64,000 nt of DNA from a virus. Its lineage: Duplodnaviria > Caudoviricetes. The notes beneath the pieces were generated by a model, which saw only the letters and a list, made by a program, of their open reading frames with translations, was not told where the DNA came from and ran no database searches. Positions 4,775-62,921 of this stretch are shown in pieces. Numbering within the stretch: position 1 is the stretch's first letter; each line of letters begins with the position of its first letter. The stretch lies in IMG/VR virus record IMGVR_UViG_3300015360_000043, positions 774-64,773 of that record; one strand, 5' to 3'. The position numbers were made by a program, and so were the translations under genes.

Positions 4775-6244
4775 ATGGCGATTATCCCTTCCGGCGGGAC
4801 CATCCGTAATGACTTGTATTCCATCAGTACGACGGCCCAAATCCTCAACAACATCAACACCACTTTGGTAGCGGCGGGGTGGACTTCGGTTCCCGTCGCC
4901 GCCCGGAATACCATTATCTTCTCCGGTCAACCGAGCAACAACCAAAACGTCACCCTAGGACTGGTCACCTACACCTTCCTTACGGTGATGCCTAACCTGT
5001 TGCCCGGGCAGGTGCTGATCGGAGCAACCGCGCAAGACACGTATCAAAACCTGTATTATGCCATGCAGCTCGGCCTGGGCTCGGGTACCTTGTATTCTTC
5101 CTCGACTCCCTTGAATGCTGACCTCACGCCGGTCCTAACCACCGGTCGCTTCCTGATCCTCTACAACACGCCGGGTCCCGTCGGCAACACTTTCTACGTT
5201 TTCACCGGAACGCTCGCCAATGCCGTCTTCTACAACGGATGCAACAGCCCAAACGGGTTTCCACTCATCGGCGGGGGCTATAACTGGACCTCGACGGGGA
5301 ACAACGTAGGAATGAAAGTCCAGGTCTACGGGTACAGTAGCCCCGAAGGTGGAAATCAGTGCCGTTTTATCGTGCAAAACGAAACGGGGCAGTCCACCAC
5401 GGGAGTCTTGACCGTCGGATGCTCGGATTCGGGCAATAATATCTACGGTATGATACTGCGAGTGGCCTCCGTGCCCAATATGAGGGTAATTGCGAACAAT
5501 AAGCAATTTTTTGCCTTCGAGAATGACTCTTCTACCGGCTTTGGCAGCTTCATAGGCTTCGGCGTACCCTATTTGTTGGACTTTTTGGCTCCAGTGCCCC
5601 TCACAGGGGCTTCAAATGCCAACCCCATCCAAATCCAGACTCCAACACCTCACGGGCTCGTAAGTGGGGACAACGTTTGCATCAGCGGAGTGCTGACTAA
5701 CACCGCCGCGAACGGCCAATTCAACGTAACCGTAATCAGCGCGACCGTCTTCACCATCCCAATCGCAGGCAATGGCATTTATACCTCCGGCGGGCTAGTC
5801 GGGAAGATCGGGAGCACCATCAGTGAGGCCTTTTTTGGGATTAACCGGGGGAACGAGCCCTCGTTTATCCGCAACAGCTTGTCCAGCGGGTACGAGGCCG
5901 CTTGGGTTCTTAACGGATCTGTCACGCTTGCCAGTGTAAACAACACCAACGTTGGCGGGCTTAGATTCGTAGTGCCCCAGCTCGCGGCGTCAGCCCTAAA
6001 CGGCAAACGACTACCCTTCTACGACAACACCTCCTTGTTCTCGGAACCTATCATAGGCTGGGGGACAAGTCCGACGGGCACCTTCTTCGTTTTTGGCCAA
6101 TTGTACGACTCCTTTGTAGAGAACCGGCAAGAACCCATCGGTACGCAAGGAGTTCTAAACGGGCTAAACTACTATTCGCTGACCGTTGACAACGCCGGCG
6201 ACGCCAACAACGTGCAGGGTACCTTTTGCGTTAGGATTCCTTAA
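4775..6244 (+). CDS. tail/appendage protein with an E1-FCCH-like beta domain
   Basis: G/N/T-rich 489 aa; ANPIQIQTPTPHGLVSGDNVCISGV...NGQFNVTVISATVFTI...YTSGG pattern seen in phage tail proteins. Confidence 0.7.
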   Translation: MAIIPSGGTIRNDLYSISTTAQILNNINTTLVAAGWTSVPVAARNTIIFSGQPSNNQNVTLGLVTYTFLTVMPNLLPGQVLIGATAQDTYQNLYYAMQLGLGSGTLYSSSTPLNADLTPVLTTGRFLILYNTPGPVGNTFYVFTGTLANAVFYNGCNSPNGFPLIGGGYNWTSTGNNVGMKVQVYGYSSPEGGNQCRFIVQNETGQSTTGVLTVGCSDSGNNIYGMILRVASVPNMRVIANNKQFFAFENDSSTGFGSFIGFGVPYLLDFLAPVPLTGASNANPIQIQTPTPHGLVSGDNVCISGVLTNTAANGQFNVTVISATVFTIPIAGNGIYTSGGLVGKIGSTISEAFFGINRGNEPSFIRNSLSSGYEAAWVLNGSVTLASVNNTNVGGLRFVVPQLAASALNGKRLPFYDNTSLFSEPIIGWGTSPTGTFFVFGQLYDSFVENRQEPIGTQGVLNGLNYYSLTVDNAGDANNVQGTFCVRIP

Positions 6245-6891
6245 TGGCTTTTGGATTCGCAGTAACTTTCGTCCCGTTTAAGTCTTCCGCCCCGACGGGC
6301 ATTACCCCGTTCGACCCGGCGGCGGCTATCTTCGTAGTTGCTGGTGATGACGCCCGGGGCAAATCATTTATCCTGGGCGGGATCACATTCCAAGAGCGCA
6401 TTGGAAACTGGCAAGGAGAGGACTGTTTTATCGTTGCAATCCCCAACGTCCCCCCTCCGGTTTACATAGACCCACCCTTTCCGCCGGTCTACCCCTACTT
6501 ATTCGCAACCGACCCCATCTATGGGAGAGAAAACTTGTCACTCAACTTTCAAATGGTCCGAATGGACGACTATGTATTCGAAGCGACAGTGATCCTTGAC
6601 TCCCTCCCAGTCAACCTGACCGACTCCACGCTTATCTTCACCGCTAAATGGTCAGTCAAAGACCTTGACTCGGCGGCGGTCTTTCAACTCACCTCCGGCA
6701 CGCCCCAGCTCACGATCACCAACGCCCTGCTCGGCCAGTACCGGGTAGACATCCCGTCGTCGGCTACTTCCCTGGTGCCTCTCAACAAAACCGAACTCGT
6801 CTACGATATCCAAATGCTTACCCCCACCGGAAAGCGCAAAACTATCCAACGCGGCATCCTAATAGTGGTGCCTGACGTAACCCTCAACTGA
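6244..6891 (+). CDS. tail protein with a BppU-N-like domain
   Basis: PVNLTDSTLIFTAK...GQYRVDIPSSAT...YDIQM...TIQRGILIVVPDVT pattern. Confidence 0.65.
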   Translation: MAFGFAVTFVPFKSSAPTGITPFDPAAAIFVVAGDDARGKSFILGGITFQERIGNWQGEDCFIVAIPNVPPPVYIDPPFPPVYPYLFATDPIYGRENLSLNFQMVRMDDYVFEATVILDSLPVNLTDSTLIFTAKWSVKDLDSAAVFQLTSGTPQLTITNALLGQYRVDIPSSATSLVPLNKTELVYDIQMLTPTGKRKTIQRGILIVVPDVTLN

Positions 6892-7547: not shown

Positions 7548-7934
7548 ATGTTTATCTCCAGCTACCTCAATGTCCAACTGCTCAACGCTACGCTGAGGAA
7601 TACCGCGTACACCCCAGTCACCCCGCTGTACGTGGCCCTCTACACGAGCAACCCCGGCCCCACAAACACCGGCGTTGAAGTAACAGGAGGCGCTTACGCT
7701 CGACAAACCATCGCCTTTGGAGCCCCGGCGAGCAACATAACCCTAAACACCAACCTCATCACCTTCCCCACCCCTCTTGCCTCCTGGGGGACCGTAGGCT
7801 GGGCGGCTATTTTTGACGCCAGCACCGGCGGCAATCTGCTCTACTACTTCCCTCTCACGGTCTCGTTCGTCATCGGTATCGGAGTCATTCTGAACTTCGC
7901 CGTGGGCTCGATCTCCGGTAAGTTTGACGTTTAA
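7548..7934 (+). CDS. phage tail fibre-associated protein (Gp80-like)
   Basis: YVALYTSNP...EVTGGAYARQTIAF...ITFP...WGTV..AAIFDASTGGNLL signature. Confidence 0.8.
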   Translation: MFISSYLNVQLLNATLRNTAYTPVTPLYVALYTSNPGPTNTGVEVTGGAYARQTIAFGAPASNITLNTNLITFPTPLASWGTVGWAAIFDASTGGNLLYYFPLTVSFVIGIGVILNFAVGSISGKFDV

Positions 7935-7939
7935 ACAGC

Positions 7940-8881
7940 ATGCCAGAACTCTACACCACCCTAGGCGAATCTACCCTCGCCTCAAGTTATACCGCCGGCG
8001 GCACCTCGATTGTCGTCGCCTCGGCGGCCTCGTTTCCCACCGCGGGCACTTTTCGCGTTCGCGTTGACGACGAGATTTTCCGGGTAACCGCAGTCTCTGG
8101 CGCGACATTTACCGTCGTGGGGGCTACAGAAGGCACCACCGCGGCCAATCACAACTCCGCGGCAGACATTACTGAGGTTTTGACCGCCGCGGCCCTTGAC
8201 GGGATCCGATCGGATATCTCCCAGTCGGGGCTAGTCAGCGCAATCCCCGGCGCTACCAAGGCCGGCAACCTCTACTTCCCCACCGACGGAATTGCAATCT
8301 CCCGGGACACCGGTGCCGCTCAGCAACGCTGGGGGCCCATTTTCCCACAAACTACCTCCCTGGCTAGCTCTTTTAGCTGGAGCAACCAAGGCCCTGCAAC
8401 AGTGTCCGCCTCAAGCGGCAGCGAGTTCCTCTGGTCACCCGCCGGCGGAGTCGAGCTTCGCACGCGCTATGTTGCTGCGCCGGCTACCCCCTACACGCTT
8501 ACCGCGTGGATAACGCCGATGCTGAATCATGTTGGCAATTCCTGCTTTATCGGCTTCCACAACATCTCCACCGGCGGAACTATCACCTTCGGGTACTCGA
8601 ATGACAACCCGGTCAAGGTAGCATCAATCAAATTCAGCAGTCCGAATAACTACGCGGGTGAGTACTTCCGAAACCAAGGAATAGTAGGCCTGATTTGTCT
8701 GCGTCTTACGGACGATGGGACCCTGAAAAAAGGGCTCATCTCAGTAGACGGCGTAAACTTTGTCGAATTGATGTCAATGACCTCGGCTGACTTTTTCACA
8801 CCAACGGGGCTCAACTGGGGAGCTTACTCAAACTCCGCCGTAGGATGCGGCGTATTGTTGAATTCGTGGGTAATCACTTAA
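7940..8881 (+). CDS. tail fibre / receptor-binding protein
   Basis: N-terminal tail beta domain (SIVVASAASFP..G.FRVRVDDEI...EGTTAANH) and a beta-rich C-terminus. Confidence 0.7.
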   Translation: MPELYTTLGESTLASSYTAGGTSIVVASAASFPTAGTFRVRVDDEIFRVTAVSGATFTVVGATEGTTAANHNSAADITEVLTAAALDGIRSDISQSGLVSAIPGATKAGNLYFPTDGIAISRDTGAAQQRWGPIFPQTTSLASSFSWSNQGPATVSASSGSEFLWSPAGGVELRTRYVAAPATPYTLTAWITPMLNHVGNSCFIGFHNISTGGTITFGYSNDNPVKVASIKFSSPNNYAGEYFRNQGIVGLICLRLTDDGTLKKGLISVDGVNFVELMSMTSADFFTPTGLNWGAYSNSAVGCGVLLNSWVIT

Positions 8882-8888
8882 CCCCCCG

Positions 8889-9353
8889 ATGAGCGCTATT
8901 TCCCAACTCGGCGGCCTACAGCTAGGCAGCGGCCAGCTCGGCGCAGTTGGCGGGGGCACTAGCGGTACGGGCAATTTCTCCGTTGCTCTCGTATGGTCTG
9001 CGGTGCCTTCGTATTTGGTACTGGCATCGGCGACCTTCAACGTCCCGATGGTTTGGCTAGCCGACTCCACCATCCCGGTGTTTGCCTTCGGCACCTTCTC
9101 AGTCCCCCAGGTCTGGTCCGCCCTTCCAGGAGCTACGGCGCTCGCCGGCGGCATCTTCGTCCCCGCAGTGCTCTTCTGGCTGCCCTTCGTAGGCAACCCA
9201 GAAGCCGAAAGCACCTTCCGGGCAACCATGCCGAAAAGCTGGCCGCGGGGCGCTATGCCGGTATCCTTCGTTCGCCGGTTCGAGAAGTTCACCTCCCCCA
9301 TCCGGCCCAACCTCCAAGAGAGCAACGGGACCGTCCCTTACATTTCAGGCTAA
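8889..9353 (+). CDS. hypothetical tail-module protein
   Basis: ORF tiling between tail genes; repeated F.VP.VW.A segments. Confidence 0.6.
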   Translation: MSAISQLGGLQLGSGQLGAVGGGTSGTGNFSVALVWSAVPSYLVLASATFNVPMVWLADSTIPVFAFGTFSVPQVWSALPGATALAGGIFVPAVLFWLPFVGNPEAESTFRATMPKSWPRGAMPVSFVRRFEKFTSPIRPNLQESNGTVPYISG

Positions 9354-9362
9354 ACTAGGAGG

Positions 9363-9839
9363 GTGCCCCTGCCTTTGATGCCTGATGTTTTGGTGAGATT
9401 CCCCGAGCGGCTACGCAGGGAGTTTCGAAAAGCAGTCCTGAAAGCCTTTCCCCTAGAAGAAGTCGCGATTTTGCTTGGCAAGCGCGGCCCAAACGGCGAG
9501 TACGACCTCGACCGGCTGTACTTCCCGCCCACGCGGCTTAAAAAATCCACCACCGAGAACATCGTAATCCTCCCCGAGTGGTTTAGCGACGCCGAGGCTG
9601 CCCATCCGGGCTATCAGGTCTTCGGCGACATCCACTCGCACCCGTATATCGGCCTCGACATGCCAATGTTATCCGCGGAGCCCTCTGAAACCGACTGGAT
9701 ATCCGCGGCACACAAACGAAAGCACTACCCCGGCGGCTACCACCTCATGGGCATCATGACATGCCTTGAGATAGGTCAAAAATACGTCACAAAAACCAAA
9801 TTCTGGCCCATAGGAGCCCCGGTTACCCTCGTCAGATGA
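9363..9839 (+). CDS. JAB/MPN (JAMM) metalloprotease
   Basis: EEVAILLG...GDIHSHP...PSETD matches E...HxH...SxxD; stop overlaps the terL start (ATGA). Confidence 0.8.
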   Translation: MPLPLMPDVLVRFPERLRREFRKAVLKAFPLEEVAILLGKRGPNGEYDLDRLYFPPTRLKKSTTENIVILPEWFSDAEAAHPGYQVFGDIHSHPYIGLDMPMLSAEPSETDWISAAHKRKHYPGGYHLMGIMTCLEIGQKYVTKTKFWPIGAPVTLVR

Positions 9840-11593
9840 GCGAACAACGATTCGATCTTAAAAAGCTACCAGAAGACGTCTACCAAAAGCTGGTGACAAC
9901 CCGCTGGCGGTGCCGGACTGACTTGAAATTCCTCTGCAACGAAGTCCTGGGCTTCAAAGACGTCAGCGAAGAACTGCACGGGCCGGTCATCGCCAATTTG
10001 CAACAATTTCCCCTACCCGACGTAGAGACCCAGCGAAGCTCGGACAGAATTATCGACGGCAAATGGTACTTCACCAGCCCCACCCGCATGCTGGACCTCG
10101 AAGGCCGCCGCCGGATGCTGCTTATCGACAGCCGCGGGTTTCTCAAAACAACCATCAACATCATCGCGCACACCATCCAGTGGATCATCAACTACCCCGA
10201 CATAGCACTGTTAATCGTCCAAAGCAACTCAGCAAAAGCTGAGGCGTTTTTGCGCGAGATCAAACAGCACTTCCAGGGGAACCCCCGCCTCCGGGCCCTC
10301 TTCCCCGAGCACTGCCCCATGAAGCGCATCATGGAGTGGGGCACCCAGACCCAGTTCACGTCAGAGGCCCGCAGCATCACGGCCTTACGCCGGGAGCCCA
10401 CCGTCGTGGCCGGCTCTATCGACAAAGGGATGGCCGGGTACCACTTTGACCTCATCAAGTTCTCCGACATCGTAGACCCCTCCAACATCACCGGCAACGG
10501 GCTCCAGCAGGTCAAAGACAGCTTCGGCATGATGCACAATCTGCTGATCTCCCCGCTGTACTGGATCGACGTGGAAGGCACCCGCTACCACATGGACGAC
10601 CTGTACGGGAAGATCATCGAAGACGAGGACAAAGCGACGGAAGACATGAAGGAGTGGAACATGTTCATCCGGGGGGCGACCTTCCGGGAATGGGGCGGCA
10701 AGCCCGAGGAATACACCATGGAGGCCCTGCTGACCCGCCCCGAGGTGATAGACAAGGACGGCTTGCCAAAATCCCGCTGGCCTACCCGCTTCCCCAACAA
10801 AGACTTGGCCAGCATGAAACGCAAAAACCGCTTCATGTACATGACCCAGCAGCAGCAGTTGCCCATGCCGACCGACGGCGACGCCTACTTCCCCGTCAAC
10901 CACGCCTACCCGACCTGGATCTCCCGAAAGGACTTCAAACAGAACATAAGAGTGGCCGCGTATGAAATCACCGTGGACACCGCGGAGACCATTAACAAAA
11001 AAGCCGACTACACCGTCATCATAGTCGCCGCATGGTCCGGCAACGGCAAATGCTATATCGACAAAATCATAATGGGGCAGTTCCTTCCCGATCAAACCAT
11101 TTCAAAAATCCTAAACGAGGCCCTCACTCACTACGGCAAGCTCCGAAGCATTAAAATCGAAGAAACCGGCTACGTCCGGGGTATGAAATCTTCCCTCCAG
11201 CGCAAGATGGACATGAACGGCATTACGCTTCCGATCACCTTCGTGAAGCGCGATACCCAAGTCGGCAAGGAAGAGCGCATCGCCCAAACCCTCCAGCCCC
11301 CCTACCGGGCCCACGAGCTAATTTTTCTCGACGACCTGGGGCTCACCGTGGACAGCGAGGAATACCTTCTCACCAAAAGCGAGCTGCTCGAAGAACTGAA
11401 AAACTTCCCGGCAGCGAAGCATGACGACATCCTTGACGCCATCTCCGACCTCTGGCAAAACAAAGGCTGGCACGGGCGAGAATTTACCCGACGCACGCTC
11501 ACGCAAGAGTACGACACCAGCATGGCCCGGCTGCTGGGGCTCGACGACGAATACTCGATAGTCAACGCGCCCCGCAAGAGCTTCACGCTATAA
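9836..11593 (+). CDS. terL: terminase large subunit
   Basis: SRGFLKTT Walker A variant, GYHFDLIKFSD, EGTRYHMDDLYG, nuclease motifs ITVDTA and KHDDILDA. Confidence 0.93.
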   Translation: MSEQRFDLKKLPEDVYQKLVTTRWRCRTDLKFLCNEVLGFKDVSEELHGPVIANLQQFPLPDVETQRSSDRIIDGKWYFTSPTRMLDLEGRRRMLLIDSRGFLKTTINIIAHTIQWIINYPDIALLIVQSNSAKAEAFLREIKQHFQGNPRLRALFPEHCPMKRIMEWGTQTQFTSEARSITALRREPTVVAGSIDKGMAGYHFDLIKFSDIVDPSNITGNGLQQVKDSFGMMHNLLISPLYWIDVEGTRYHMDDLYGKIIEDEDKATEDMKEWNMFIRGATFREWGGKPEEYTMEALLTRPEVIDKDGLPKSRWPTRFPNKDLASMKRKNRFMYMTQQQQLPMPTDGDAYFPVNHAYPTWISRKDFKQNIRVAAYEITVDTAETINKKADYTVIIVAAWSGNGKCYIDKIIMGQFLPDQTISKILNEALTHYGKLRSIKIEETGYVRGMKSSLQRKMDMNGITLPITFVKRDTQVGKEERIAQTLQPPYRAHELIFLDDLGLTVDSEEYLLTKSELLEELKNFPAAKHDDILDAISDLWQNKGWHGREFTRRTLTQEYDTSMARLLGLDDEYSIVNAPRKSFTL

Positions 11594-11610: not shown

Positions 11611-11904
11611 ATGAAAAAGTACAACTTTAAGCCGACCACTCTCCCTGGCATGATCGCCGTTGCCCTGGCTATTATCGCCGAGTACCCCAGCCCCTTCCCC
11701 TACGCCGAGAATATCCAACCTCTGGCCGGCCTTCTGGCCGCTATCGCGGCGGCGCTCTTCGCCTACAACGTCTCCGGGGCTCACCCGACGCCCCCCATTG
11801 TATCAACCCCTGATCTCGCTGAGGAAGACCCGGCAAACAAACTTCTCCTGGCCATCCCTAAGGCCATCCCCGAGGTCTCGGCAAAACCCAAGGTCCGCGC
11901 ATAA
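11611..11904 (+). CDS. putative holin / membrane protein
   Basis: two hydrophobic segments after KPTTLPG; 97 aa. Confidence 0.5.
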   Translation: MKKYNFKPTTLPGMIAVALAIIAEYPSPFPYAENIQPLAGLLAAIAAALFAYNVSGAHPTPPIVSTPDLAEEDPANKLLLAIPKAIPEVSAKPKVRA

Positions 11905-34855: not shown

Positions 34856-36040
34856 CTAGGACTCGTTCATGTCAGGTTCTTTCGTGACTTGGTAATCGGG
34901 GTTAAAATACTTGGCAATCTTTCTCTCGAAAGCCGGGGAAAGCGAGACCCGCTGGTCTACCTTTCGGACTACCACCCCCTCGCGAATATGATTGGCCCCG
35001 AGGATACGACTCTTCCCCTGGCAGGCCCCCTCAAGCTCCTTGCCAAACAATTCTTGAGCAGTAGCAAACGTCCCGGTGAAGATCAACGGCGGCACTTCAA
35101 AGCCCCGGCTTATCAGCAACGCCCGGCGAGATCTTGTGTCGATATACTCGCCTGTCTTGGTGTTCAGGAGGTCAAAAGCCCTAAACTTGACTTCGCCGGG
35201 GATAGTCCCGTAGTTGAGGTACTGCACGCCGGTACCGTATACCTCGCCGAACAACACCTCGCCTTCCGTCAGCTTTGAAAACACGTCGTAGAGTTTGGCG
35301 ACTCGACCCCACCAGTTGCCCGGCTTGCCGGCTGCCACGTACCAGTCCGATATGCCCGCATGAGTCCGCAGCCCCTTGATCGCATGATGACTACCAACGA
35401 TATCCCGAACAACCTTTGCCGGCGACACCCCCAGCAGCTTCTTCAACTCATACCAAGCCTTGGTATACCACGGGCTACCCAGAGGCAGCACATTGGTCAC
35501 CAAGAGCTTACCGTACCGCGCATTGGCCCCGTGGATCTTTTCCTCGATTTCGACATAATCGTCTGGGGCGAAAAAGTCATACCCTACCCGGCGGATGGTC
35601 GGAAACTTCGAATACTCTACAAACCCAGCCCGGATAATCTCCCGTTTGAGGTTGAAATACTTGCTAATCTCGCCGACTTTCACCCCCAGCTCATACAGCG
35701 GCTGGTACTTGGTAATCCCGAGGATCTCGGACACCTCATCCCCCTCTACGGCCCCTACAGGGGCCTTCACCAGCAGGCCTTCCGAGTAGACATTCCGAAG
35801 GCGCACAGCTCGAACCCGGCGGTGCCGCTGGTCGTCTAGCCCCTTATGCACATAGTCGTACTCCGGCAGAAACGGCACCACCGAATCCTCAGGCACAAAC
35901 ACTCCAAGGTCGCCCGGCTGCCACTCCTCCGTCCGCACAACCACGGGGTACTCAAACACCTTGGTGATGGATAGCAAATCCGCGTTGGGATGCTTGTTCA
36001 AAGCCCCTACCTTAACCACAATACATTCTGCTTGTCTCAT
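34856..36040 (-). CDS. RNA ligase, DRB0094/Rnl5 family
   Basis: N-terminal OB domain (HPNADLL...SEGLL), EEKIHGAN motif I, FGEVYG, FRAFD, REGVVVR, AKYFNPDY. Confidence 0.88.
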   Translation of the reverse strand: MRQAECIVVKVGALNKHPNADLLSITKVFEYPVVVRTEEWQPGDLGVFVPEDSVVPFLPEYDYVHKGLDDQRHRRVRAVRLRNVYSEGLLVKAPVGAVEGDEVSEILGITKYQPLYELGVKVGEISKYFNLKREIIRAGFVEYSKFPTIRRVGYDFFAPDDYVEIEEKIHGANARYGKLLVTNVLPLGSPWYTKAWYELKKLLGVSPAKVVRDIVGSHHAIKGLRTHAGISDWYVAAGKPGNWWGRVAKLYDVFSKLTEGEVLFGEVYGTGVQYLNYGTIPGEVKFRAFDLLNTKTGEYIDTRSRRALLISRGFEVPPLIFTGTFATAQELFGKELEGACQGKSRILGANHIREGVVVRKVDQRVSLSPAFERKIAKYFNPDYQVTKEPDMNES

Positions 36041-39057: not shown

Positions 39058-39132
39058 CTGTTTCTCTCTTCCTTGCGTCTATTACCCTTGTCTGTCGTTT
39101 TTATAGTCCCTCGACATAAGGGATAATGAGGG

Positions 39133-39205
39133 TGGGGTACTCATGGATTTGAACCATCGCTTGCGAATTTGGATCCGCCGTGCTAACCGCTACACCAAAT
39201 ACCCC
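39133..39205 (-). tRNA. tRNA-Trp(CCA)-like gene with an atypical anticodon loop
   Basis: GGGGTATT/AGTACCCC acceptor stem, TAGCGGTTAG D region, GGTTCAAATCC T arm; GCGGA-TCCAAA-TTCGC has only a 6-nt loop. Confidence 0.6.
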
Positions 39206-53195: not shown

Positions 53196-54179
53196 CTAGA
53201 ACTCCCGCCCGAAGCCCAACTGGTAGAGGGGCAGTCCGAGCTGCTGCCACATGCGGCAGACTTGAGGCCGGTCGTCGAAGACATACGCGACGTGGTACTG
53301 GGGGGCGATGAGGCTGAGGAAGAAATCCTTCTTGACCAGCCAGTCCGCCCGGGTGTCCGCCGGCGCTCTGCCGAGGAGGGAGAACGTCGAGGTCCGGTCA
53401 TCCACGCTGCCGAAGTGCCTGCTGTAGAACTTTTCGTGCAGCTTTTGCAGGGTCGCGGCTTCGGTGGCCTTTGACAAGGTTCGGCCCGTGAGGAAGATGA
53501 TTTTGCCGATACTGCTGTCCAGCCGCAGGGCGGCCATGATGTCGAGCAGGCCGTAATTCCAGGTGTCTGTCAGGCAGGCGTCGCCGGGGTCATACATGTT
53601 GCGCTTGCCGTCGCTGTAGAGCAAGGTGCCGTCGAGGTCGCAGATGATCGCCCGAGGGCGGGGCAGCCGCAGCGGCCCAGTCAGGTGGGTAAGGTTGGGG
53701 TGCGGCGTAAGGAATACCCGGTAGTCCTGGTAGAGCGCCTGGAAGTTATCCATGGCGTCTTCTGGTACCGGGGTCTCTCGCTCGGAGTTGACAAGCCGGG
53801 CTTGCTCGATCGAGTTGCCCAGCCGGCCCCTTTCGGAGTTGGCCGCGTGGACGTCGATAAACCGCAGGGCCGCGCCGGCTTGCTTGGCCAGCTCGGACCA
53901 GCTAGCGTGTGATCTGGCGGTCAGGTTGGTGTCGTCTACCACGACCGTGATGCCGAGGGAGAGCCAGAGGCGGGCGAGCTTTCTCTCGGACTCGATGATA
54001 AGTGACTCGGGGGGCCGGACAGCGCCCGTCATGGCCCGGAGGTCGTCCCGGTTGATCCGCAGCGCCGGGGCGTTGATTTCGAGTATTTGTTTGGCGATGG
54101 TCGATTTGCCGCCGCCGGGGATACCTTGCAGGACGTAGAGCAAGGGCGGTACAAGAGAGTTGATTGAGGTGTTTTGCAT
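53196..54179 (-). CDS. pseT: polynucleotide 5'-kinase / 3'-phosphatase (T4 PseT-like)
   Basis: GIPGGGKST, RINRDDLR, VVDDTN; HAD domain DLDGT, LTGR, R.D..VK, FDDRPQV. Confidence 0.9.
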   Translation of the reverse strand: MQNTSINSLVPPLLYVLQGIPGGGKSTIAKQILEINAPALRINRDDLRAMTGAVRPPESLIIESERKLARLWLSLGITVVVDDTNLTARSHASWSELAKQAGAALRFIDVHAANSERGRLGNSIEQARLVNSERETPVPEDAMDNFQALYQDYRVFLTPHPNLTHLTGPLRLPRPRAIICDLDGTLLYSDGKRNMYDPGDACLTDTWNYGLLDIMAALRLDSSIGKIIFLTGRTLSKATEAATLQKLHEKFYSRHFGSVDDRTSTFSLLGRAPADTRADWLVKKDFFLSLIAPQYHVAYVFDDRPQVCRMWQQLGLPLYQLGFGREF

Positions 54180-54367
54180 GGGGTTAGAGAGGCAAGAGGT
54201 GGATGAAATCATAGATGTAAACCAGCAGGTAGCAGCCGAACCAGAAGATGGAGCCTCTCCACTCCCGCCCGGTGCTAAGGTCTTCCCAGGCGCAGATGAG
54301 AGAGGAGGTGATAATGCTGGTTATCAGGGTGAGGCAGAGGAGCAGGACCACGCGCTCAAGCATTTGG

Positions 54368-62846: not shown

Positions 62847-62921
62847 TGGTAGCCTTGACGGGAGTCGAACCCGCGCCCCCACCTCGAAAGGGTGGTGTCC
62901 TAACCGTTAGACCACAAGGCT
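62847..62921 (-). tRNA. tRNA-Glu(TTC) with encoded CCA
   Basis: AGCCTTG/CAAGGCT acceptor stem, CCACC-CTTTCGA-GGTGG anticodon arm, GGTTCGACTCC T arm, ACCA end. Confidence 0.93.

Follow-up and report, generated by a model that had tools for sequence, protein, structure and literature searches.

Gene Structure and Junction with terL

Why would a podovirus-type phage carry a gene for a stand-alone JAB/JAMM zinc peptidase between its tail-fiber genes and terL, the gene encoding the large terminase? Such a gene lies on the plus strand of a 64,000-nucleotide stretch (the window; positions 774 to 64,773 of the 64,773-base virus record IMGVR_UViG_3300015360_000043, Duplodnaviria; Caudoviricetes, rated 100% complete). 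The gene is real, intact, and of a known enzyme kind, and its product is probably an accessory tool of the phage, perhaps directed against host defenses that tag proteins. The features on which the argument turns are as follows.

9357..9362, plus strand: AGGAGG, a Shine-Dalgarno-like hexamer (sequence reading) directly adjacent to GTG 9363 and 15 nt ahead of ATG 9378
9363..9839, plus strand: stand-alone JAB/JAMM (MPN+) zinc peptidase gene (JAB gene), a 158-aa open reading frame (ORF) from GTG 9363
9456..9458, plus strand: codon of the catalytic glutamate E32 (sequence reading and family conservation)
9633..9695, plus strand: HSH-x14-SETD zinc-binding and catalytic block with H91, H93, S108, and D111 (sequence reading and family conservation)
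9836..11593, plus strand: terL, large terminase (phrog_38, E 1.2e-50)

A preliminary description of the locus, made from the letters alone, had reported an intact E...HSH...SxxD motif with a lengthened spacer and translational coupling to terL, and both reports hold. The glutamate is E32, the H91-S-H93 codons occupy 9633-9641, the S108-E-T-D111 codons occupy 9684-9695, and 14 residues separate H93 from S108. The stop codon of the JAB gene (TGA, 9837-9839) overlaps the start codon of terL (ATG, 9836-9838), giving ATGA at 9836-9839. At the other end of the gene, the hexamer directly abuts GTG 9363, and therefore ATG 9378 (153 aa) is more likely to be the start codon than GTG 9363 (158 aa), as judged from the sequence; a 96%-identical homolog (P0001) and an Atlas record both start at the position of ATG 9378. 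No terminator-like site was found between the last ORF of the fiber module and terL, the JAB gene included, and no GC anomaly was found near the gene. A single promoter-like site lies within it (9756-9783).

Enzyme Class and Catalytic Site

The encoded protein almost certainly belongs to the JAMM/MPN+ zinc peptidase class. Pfam PF14464 (Prok-JAB) matches it at E 3.2e-9, with 37.1 bits against a cut-off of 25, and is the sole Pfam match of the 158-aa protein even at E<=10, which by that cut-off places it, as a sequence-based assignment, in Prok-JAB; the five relatives found first also match Prok-JAB or JAB. A HMMER search of 1.84 billion representatives returned 120 clusters at E<=1e-3, 27 at <=1e-10, and 2 at <=1e-30, nearly all of them 140-165 aa long and only one longer than 200 aa. 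An AlphaFold model built from 49 sequences has a pLDDT of 93.6 and the JAMM fold, with a plain domain of ~150 aa, and Foldseek matches it in the PDB to the JAMM deubiquitinases AMSH/Sst2, BRCC36, BubCD, JAMM1, and Rpn11, with E values down to 2e-7. Because the Pfam match is above its cut-off, 120 homologous clusters exist, and the model is confidently of the JAMM fold, sequence and model together indicate that the motif in ORF 9363..9839 is no chance motif. All JAMM catalytic positions (E32, H91, H93, S108, and D111) are present, and the protein is apparently an active, single-domain JAMM/MPN+ zinc (iso)peptidase with intact catalytic residues.

These residues are conserved throughout the family. 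They are invariant (E, H, H, S, and D) in an alignment of the query with 48 of its top 50 matches (49 sequences, after removal of P0035, a 105-aa sequence matched in two pieces). Among the 40 unique locus copies obtained from fetched DNA, H, H, S, and D are kept in all 40 and the catalytic E in 38; contig ends truncate the remaining two. The canonical JAMM spacing is HxH-x7-SxxD, and the spacer of 14 in the window protein does not follow it; against the family profile, 2kcq and AfJAMM show a 7-residue gap at the HxH-to-S loop. The spacer is 11-21 residues across the locus copies (14 in 23/39), with one exception, a distant copy (22 bits, in G001) with 8 residues. Because every copy other than this distant one falls within 11-21 residues, the lengthened spacer is a family trait and no accident of the window gene.

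Within the JAMM class, the closest solved relatives by sequence profile are two uncharacterized bacterial stand-alone JAB proteins, 2kcq (E 1.5e-13) and 2kks (E 3.3e-8), and the profile matches BilC and BubCD only at E values of 2e-4 to 5e-4. The structural Z score to Cap3 is 12.8, which is no better than that to a dozen other JAMMs. The protein has no PHROG match at all and no PADLOC or NCBIfam (Cap3) match even at E<=10, and among the many viral JAB models in BFVD none is close (TMq <=0.59).

The family is nearly confined to phage-like contigs in the fetched DNA. A tblastn search of 50,697 GenBank phage records with the window protein and two family members returned no match. The lone fused form among the 120 clusters (P0054, 274 aa) ends in an extension that has Cys/His motifs and looks by eye like an HNH/EndoVII-type endonuclease, and we read it as an uninformative homing-endonuclease fusion. 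A bacterial genome copy (L009:4998-5453), on a contig of a Solibacteraceae metagenome-assembled genome, is a JAB gene of the family type, with a spacer of 15 and 39% identity over residues 3-111; no phage gene was found among the 10 neighbors scanned, which include KAS, sigma-70, and Ser/Thr kinase genes. The best GenBank match of the window TerL, at 24.9% identity, likewise comes from a phage that infects an acidobacterium (Tunturiibacter). Together, these two matches give a weak hint of the host phylum.

An Optional Gene at a Fixed Address

In five viral-contig loci that carry the JAB gene, TerL and then the portal follow it in 5/5, with an HNH gene between JAB and TerL in one. Among 21 JAB loci on metagenome contigs, a TerL homolog lies immediately downstream in nine (JAB identity 27-39%), and the other 12 (25-36% identity) are elsewhere in phage-like DNA, next to an exonuclease and endolysin, a dNMP kinase, a MazG-like gene and a deoxyribosyltransferase, or DNA-polymerase exonuclease-like genes; one of the 12 lies between a TerL fragment and a portal. 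A 453-aa gene downstream of distant JAB genes (L021) had no PDB or PHROG match. We also fetched 80 viral loci by TerL similarity (29-55% identity) and searched them with the JAB profile. A JAB gene is present in 19/80, and in 18 of these 19 a gap of 0-44 nt separates the end of its frame from the first TerL-aligned codon, the HNH insertion accounting for the exception. The 61 loci scored as negative include 7 with <500 nt of upstream sequence, which are not judgeable. In all, the adjacency of JAB and terL was found in 28 further loci (19 viral and 9 metagenomic).

The distribution over the TerL tree is patchy. The 20 rows with JAB, among 81, need at least seven gains or losses, and well-supported branches force at least four of these. 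The JAB gene is absent from one clade of 27 rows, and the other clade includes 20 rows with it, 28 without it, and 6 unjudged. Whole-record searches at E<=0.01 found no JAB gene in five relatives rated 100% complete; a sixth complete relative has only a distant copy elsewhere in its record. In three records with JAB that are 96-100% complete, the gene adjoins terL. The JAB and TerL trees give the same shallow groups, with JAB branches ~3 times longer, and because the JAB tree mirrors the TerL groups, the gene is stably inherited within sub-lineages, yet it is dispensable across the SU10/GP4-like lineage. GenBank phages provide only TerL matches of 24-27% identity; in Lentibacter phage ICBM2, the gene before terL encodes a tail assembly chaperone and not a JAB protein.

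The slot itself varies in other ways. Mobile inserts are drawn both to terL and to its junction with JAB: one locus has the HNH gene between the two (L003:1641-2264), another has a split TerL match (L029:4498-7257), and the TerL ORFs of three relatives (G004, G005, and G008) are 754-1001 aa long. Many unrelated small ORFs fill the pre-terL slot in relatives without JAB; in two such relatives (L033 and L047), an unrelated small HExxH zincin-like protein occupies exactly the JAB position. The TerL clade without JAB has, directly before terL, a conserved Cys-rich protein of 109-126 aa, which had no PHROG match:

L087:1372-1701, Cys-rich pre-terL protein
L088:2579-2953, Cys-rich pre-terL protein
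L089:2564-2941, Cys-rich pre-terL protein
L094:2162-2530, Cys-rich pre-terL protein
L102:2549-2929, Cys-rich pre-terL protein

Search for a Partner or Substrate

Profiling of 96 window ORFs across genomes (tblastn at 1e-4, at which very divergent or tiny genes would be missed) found none confined to genomes with JAB. The only window ORF present in all three genomes with JAB encodes a 313-aa fiber protein, and it is also present in two genomes without JAB. A conserved upstream partner was considered and rejected: the small ORFs 5' of JAB in four loci and in the window are unrelated, and the upstream fiber-module genes differ completely among the loci that carry JAB.

No end offsets in blastp alignments to the window proteins track JAB in the major capsid protein (MCP), the adaptors, a 770-aa protein, or TerL; offsets at the N-terminal end of the portal occur both in genomes with JAB (G007 and G008) and in one without it (G010). 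The MCPs of the two kinds of genomes are co-linear from residue 1. Trimming of a capsid leader was thus rejected, there being no JAB-linked extension on the MCP, portal, adaptors, 770-aa protein, or TerL. Prediction of a complex of JAB with TerL (score 0.00, mark 0.32) gives no verdict either way.

The preliminary description had also seen a stand-alone gene with no gpI-, gpJ-, or NlpC-like partner, distinct from the gpK type, and the family searches agree: Pfam gave no match to NlpC/P60, lambda gpI or gpJ, or ubiquitin-like families in 69 window proteins, a scan that leaves many ORFs of <120 aa outside and that a beta-grasp fold could escape. No ThiS/MoaD, E1, E2, or sulfur-transfer gene was found among the scanned window proteins.

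Because the gene is patchy on the TerL tree, is absent from five complete relatives, has no co-occurring gene, and is linked to no extension of a virion protein, we conclude that it encodes an enzyme that is optional and needs no partner, and that this is neither a gpK-type protease nor an assembly protease that the phage requires.

Possible Roles of the JAB Protein

Through Bil, type II CBASS, and Bub-type operons, bacteria attach ubiquitin-like modifiers to phage proteins or to immune proteins, and deubiquitinases are common in animal viruses. We infer, by analogy and tentatively, since it falls somewhat short of an even chance, that the JAB protein is a deconjugase acting on a ubiquitin-like tag supplied by the host. 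An enzyme with a host-supplied substrate fits a gene that is optional, partner-less, and fast-evolving and that has relatives in unrelated modules of other phages. Where present, the gene is the first of the packaging and head block, and its product would be made with the late proteins. The substrate would most likely come from the host, because no phage gene co-varies with JAB and relatives assemble the same virion without it. By analogy with characterized JAMM enzymes, the reaction would be hydrolysis of a peptide or isopeptide bond at the C terminus of a ubiquitin-like (or CD-NTase-like) tag. Either tags attached by the host would be stripped from new phage proteins or a conjugation-dependent defense would be damped. 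Late expression would fit the protection of virion proteins, since Bil is reported to tag them (bioRxiv 10.1101/2023.09.04.556158), and deconjugation of the Cap3 type has been reported to reduce the output of CBASS (PMC10419184). A fuller version of this proposal, possible although we would not rely on it, is that of a phage-specific family of partner-less JAMM isopeptidases, joined to terL and produced along with the virion proteins in this lineage, that free phage or host proteins of the tags a host attaches, whether ubiquitin-like (Bil/Bub-type) or CD-NTase (Cap2-type), and use the 14-residue loop as a substrate-recognition element.

Several points weigh against a deconjugase directed at host tagging. 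There is no specific link to Cap3 or BilC in PADLOC or NCBIfam at E<=10, and the closest solved relatives by sequence are the uncharacterized 2kcq and 2kks, with BilC matched only at 2e-4. To our knowledge, counter-defense genes are not usually sited in late structural operons. The mirroring of TerL groups by JAB groups within sub-lineages indicates stable inheritance, the zincin-like HExxH protein in the JAB slot of L033 and L047 could point to a proteolytic step intrinsic to the phage, and the link to host defense is drawn by analogy. The literature searched holds no description of a phage JAB protein in counter-defense and thus no precedent. The proposal in the preliminary description of a deconjugase protecting virion proteins from ubiquitin-like defense therefore survives in part: the optional, patchy, and partner-less occurrence and the lack of a JAB-linked virion extension speak for it, but nothing found is specific to Bil or CBASS.

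The other proposal made there, a new tail maturation protease, belongs to a wider alternative in which the enzyme acts during assembly to trim or release a phage protein, be it a tail fiber, the chaperone of a fiber, or a component of the head or packaging machinery. We consider this alternative doubtful, despite the position of the gene inside the late structural operon, with no terminator-like site from the fiber genes through JAB to terL and no GC anomaly, its translational coupling to terL, and its recurrence at the same place in the 28 further loci. There are precedents in the JAB-containing TAPK, encoded beside the ubiquitin-like TAPI in lambdoid and T1 tail clusters (PMC1779556), and in gene 19 of phage Patience, a “Protease” in a phage with a cleaved capsid (PMC4324244), although the model match to the latter is weak; the unrelated zincin-like protein in the slot of two JAB-less relatives adds to them. 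However, five complete relatives have the same core virion genes and no JAB, which weakens the tail maturation proposal, and no terminal extension of a core virion protein and no co-occurring gene tracks it. The fiber-module genes upstream are completely different among the loci with JAB, the scanned window proteins include no match to a ubiquitin-like protein, gpI, gpJ, or NlpC/P60, and in other phages the family occurs within modules for replication or nucleotide metabolism.

The location of distant members next to nucleotide-metabolism genes, along with the uncharacterized bacterial stand-alone JABs 2kcq and 2kks as nearest solved relatives and the family-type copy (spacer 15) with no phage gene in the 10 neighbors scanned on the Solibacteraceae contig, would also suit a host-directed or metabolic peptidase unrelated to immunity, perhaps one that acts on a ThiS/MoaD-type carrier or some other protein of the host and so reprograms the cell. 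This seems unlikely, as the scanned window proteins include no ThiS/MoaD, E1, or sulfur-transfer protein, and the neighbors suggest no specific pathway. A place immediately 5' of terL with overlapping stop and start codons, conserved at 0-44 nt in 18/19 viral loci, would be natural for a surrogate of the small terminase (TerS) or a regulator working with TerL, and neither the scanned window proteins nor 30 slot ORFs of JAB-less relatives matched a TerS family. Such a role is nonetheless very improbable, since a TerS would have no use for strictly conserved catalytic residues, the protein folds as a plain JAMM domain of ~150 aa, most TerL relatives, complete genomes included, lack JAB, and distant family members are found away from terL. 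The surrogate was rejected on two grounds: JAB keeps its catalytic residues, and none of the 30 slot ORFs of JAB-less relatives matched a TerS PHROG.

We found no description in the literature of a phage enzyme that reverses ubiquitin-like tags and none of JAB/JAMM genes located next to those for phage terminases. An optional JAMM family that phages carry with no partner gene is an evident candidate for such an enzyme and, if the proposal of a deconjugase is true, would be the first viral “deubiquitinase” used in counter-defense to be described for bacterial viruses. The analysis provides a defined family of ~120 clusters with invariant residues and a distinctive loop, together with natural sister genomes with and without JAB and a fixed address beside terL, which opens the idea to simple plating and cleavage assays. 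If the substrate of JAB is instead a virion or packaging protein that it matures, the enzyme would represent a protease class so far unassigned to podophage assembly.

Other Genes in the Window

The placement of the gene between tail-fiber genes and terL in a podovirus-type phage, also noted in the preliminary description, is borne out by its neighbors. The matched genes upstream of JAB are listed here.

6244-6891: phrog_1084 protein, fiber module
7548-7934: Gp80, “podophage GP4 fiber I” (PF23140, E 1.3e-36)
7940-8881: tail-fiber-like 313-aa protein (phrog_8469, E 9.3e-6)

Downstream are an SU10-type portal (PF23899, E 6.6e-30), a putative scaffold protein, the MCP, and SU10-adaptor-like proteins, the adaptor matches being below threshold. 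Immediately 5' of JAB, ORF 8889-9353 encodes a Gly-rich, internally repetitive 154-aa protein with the C-terminal end ...YISG; it has no family match and no homolog in any related locus, and a 165-aa ORF on the minus strand overlaps it. Between terL and the portal is a 97-aa ORF (11611-11904) with two hydrophobic stretches by eye and no family match. A 489-aa fiber-module protein (4775-6244) has a Pfam match below threshold to the “ubiquitin-activating enzyme E1 FCCH domain” (23.4 bits versus a cut-off of 29.5), which is probably a small beta-barrel of a fiber with no link to a ubiquitin system.

The minus strand of the window carries replication and RNA-repair genes. The latter are an RNA ligase (34856-36040; PF09414 plus an OB domain) and a polynucleotide kinase-phosphatase (53196-54212; HAD_PNKP plus AAA_33), a pair that repairs cleaved tRNA in T4-type phages, which suggests a separate counter-defense module in the window. 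ARAGORN found two tRNA genes, at 39131-39205 (tRNA-???, with an undetermined two-base “anticodon”) and 62847-62921 [tRNA-Glu(ttc)].

Comparison with Known Systems

By the features compared, the JAB protein is no gpK, Cap3, RadC, TerS, or Patience-type protein and probably no BilC. It sits in the classical TerS slot directly 5' of terL but has no TerS family match and has the JAMM fold. Like lambda gpK/TAPK, it has a JAB domain and is encoded close to tail-fiber genes within the late region of a phage. Proteins of the gpK type have an NlpC/P60 domain and are encoded beside the ubiquitin-like protein TAPI and TAPJ in lambdoid and T1 tail clusters (PMC1779556), whereas the window protein is a single domain in a podovirus. 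The gpK-type reading was rejected because the scanned window proteins gave no match to NlpC/P60, gpI/TAPI, or gpJ; gpK-like models in BFVD match less well (TMq 0.40-0.46) than structures of the deubiquitinase type. For RadC, Pfam gave only Prok-JAB, and RadC-named BFVD models match weakly (TMq 0.39-0.46).

The JAB proteins of actinophage head modules (Patience gp19 and that of Gordonia phage Yikes) share a small stand-alone JAB fold and a location in the head and packaging region. In Patience, the head module is described as including gene 19, for a 17-kDa “Protease,” and cleavage of the capsid takes place after residue 82 (PMC4324244). The actinophage BFVD models are weak structural matches (TMq 0.44-0.48; Patience gp19, TMq 0.44 and E 0.011), with no tblastn match. 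Those genes lie between the portal and capsid genes, whereas the window gene precedes terL and the window MCP has no extension relative to JAB-less relatives.

Unlike the deconjugases of the Cap3, BilC, and BubC type, the window protein has no PADLOC or NCBIfam match and no E1, E2, ubiquitin-like, or CD-NTase neighbors, and it is no more similar to them than to eukaryotic JAMMs. No operon with a CD-NTase and Cap2 (E1/E2) was found among the scanned window proteins. The BilC profile match (8tyx, E 2e-4) is weak and covers residues 29-100, the core only, and the scanned window proteins include no ubiquitin-like, E1, or E2 genes. Membership as a Cap3 or BilC ortholog was rejected on the family searches, the weak BilC profile match, and the unspecific structural Z score. 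Among the closest known kinds are the small stand-alone prokaryotic and archaeal JAMM/MPN+ proteins (PF14464), such as PfJAMM1 (5ld9/5lda), the Caldiarchaeum Rpn11 homolog (6fno), 2kcq, and 2kks. From these, the window protein differs in its 14-residue rather than 7-residue HxH-to-S loop, in having no adjacent gene for a ubiquitin-like protein/SAMP or E1, and in being phage-borne and coupled to terL.
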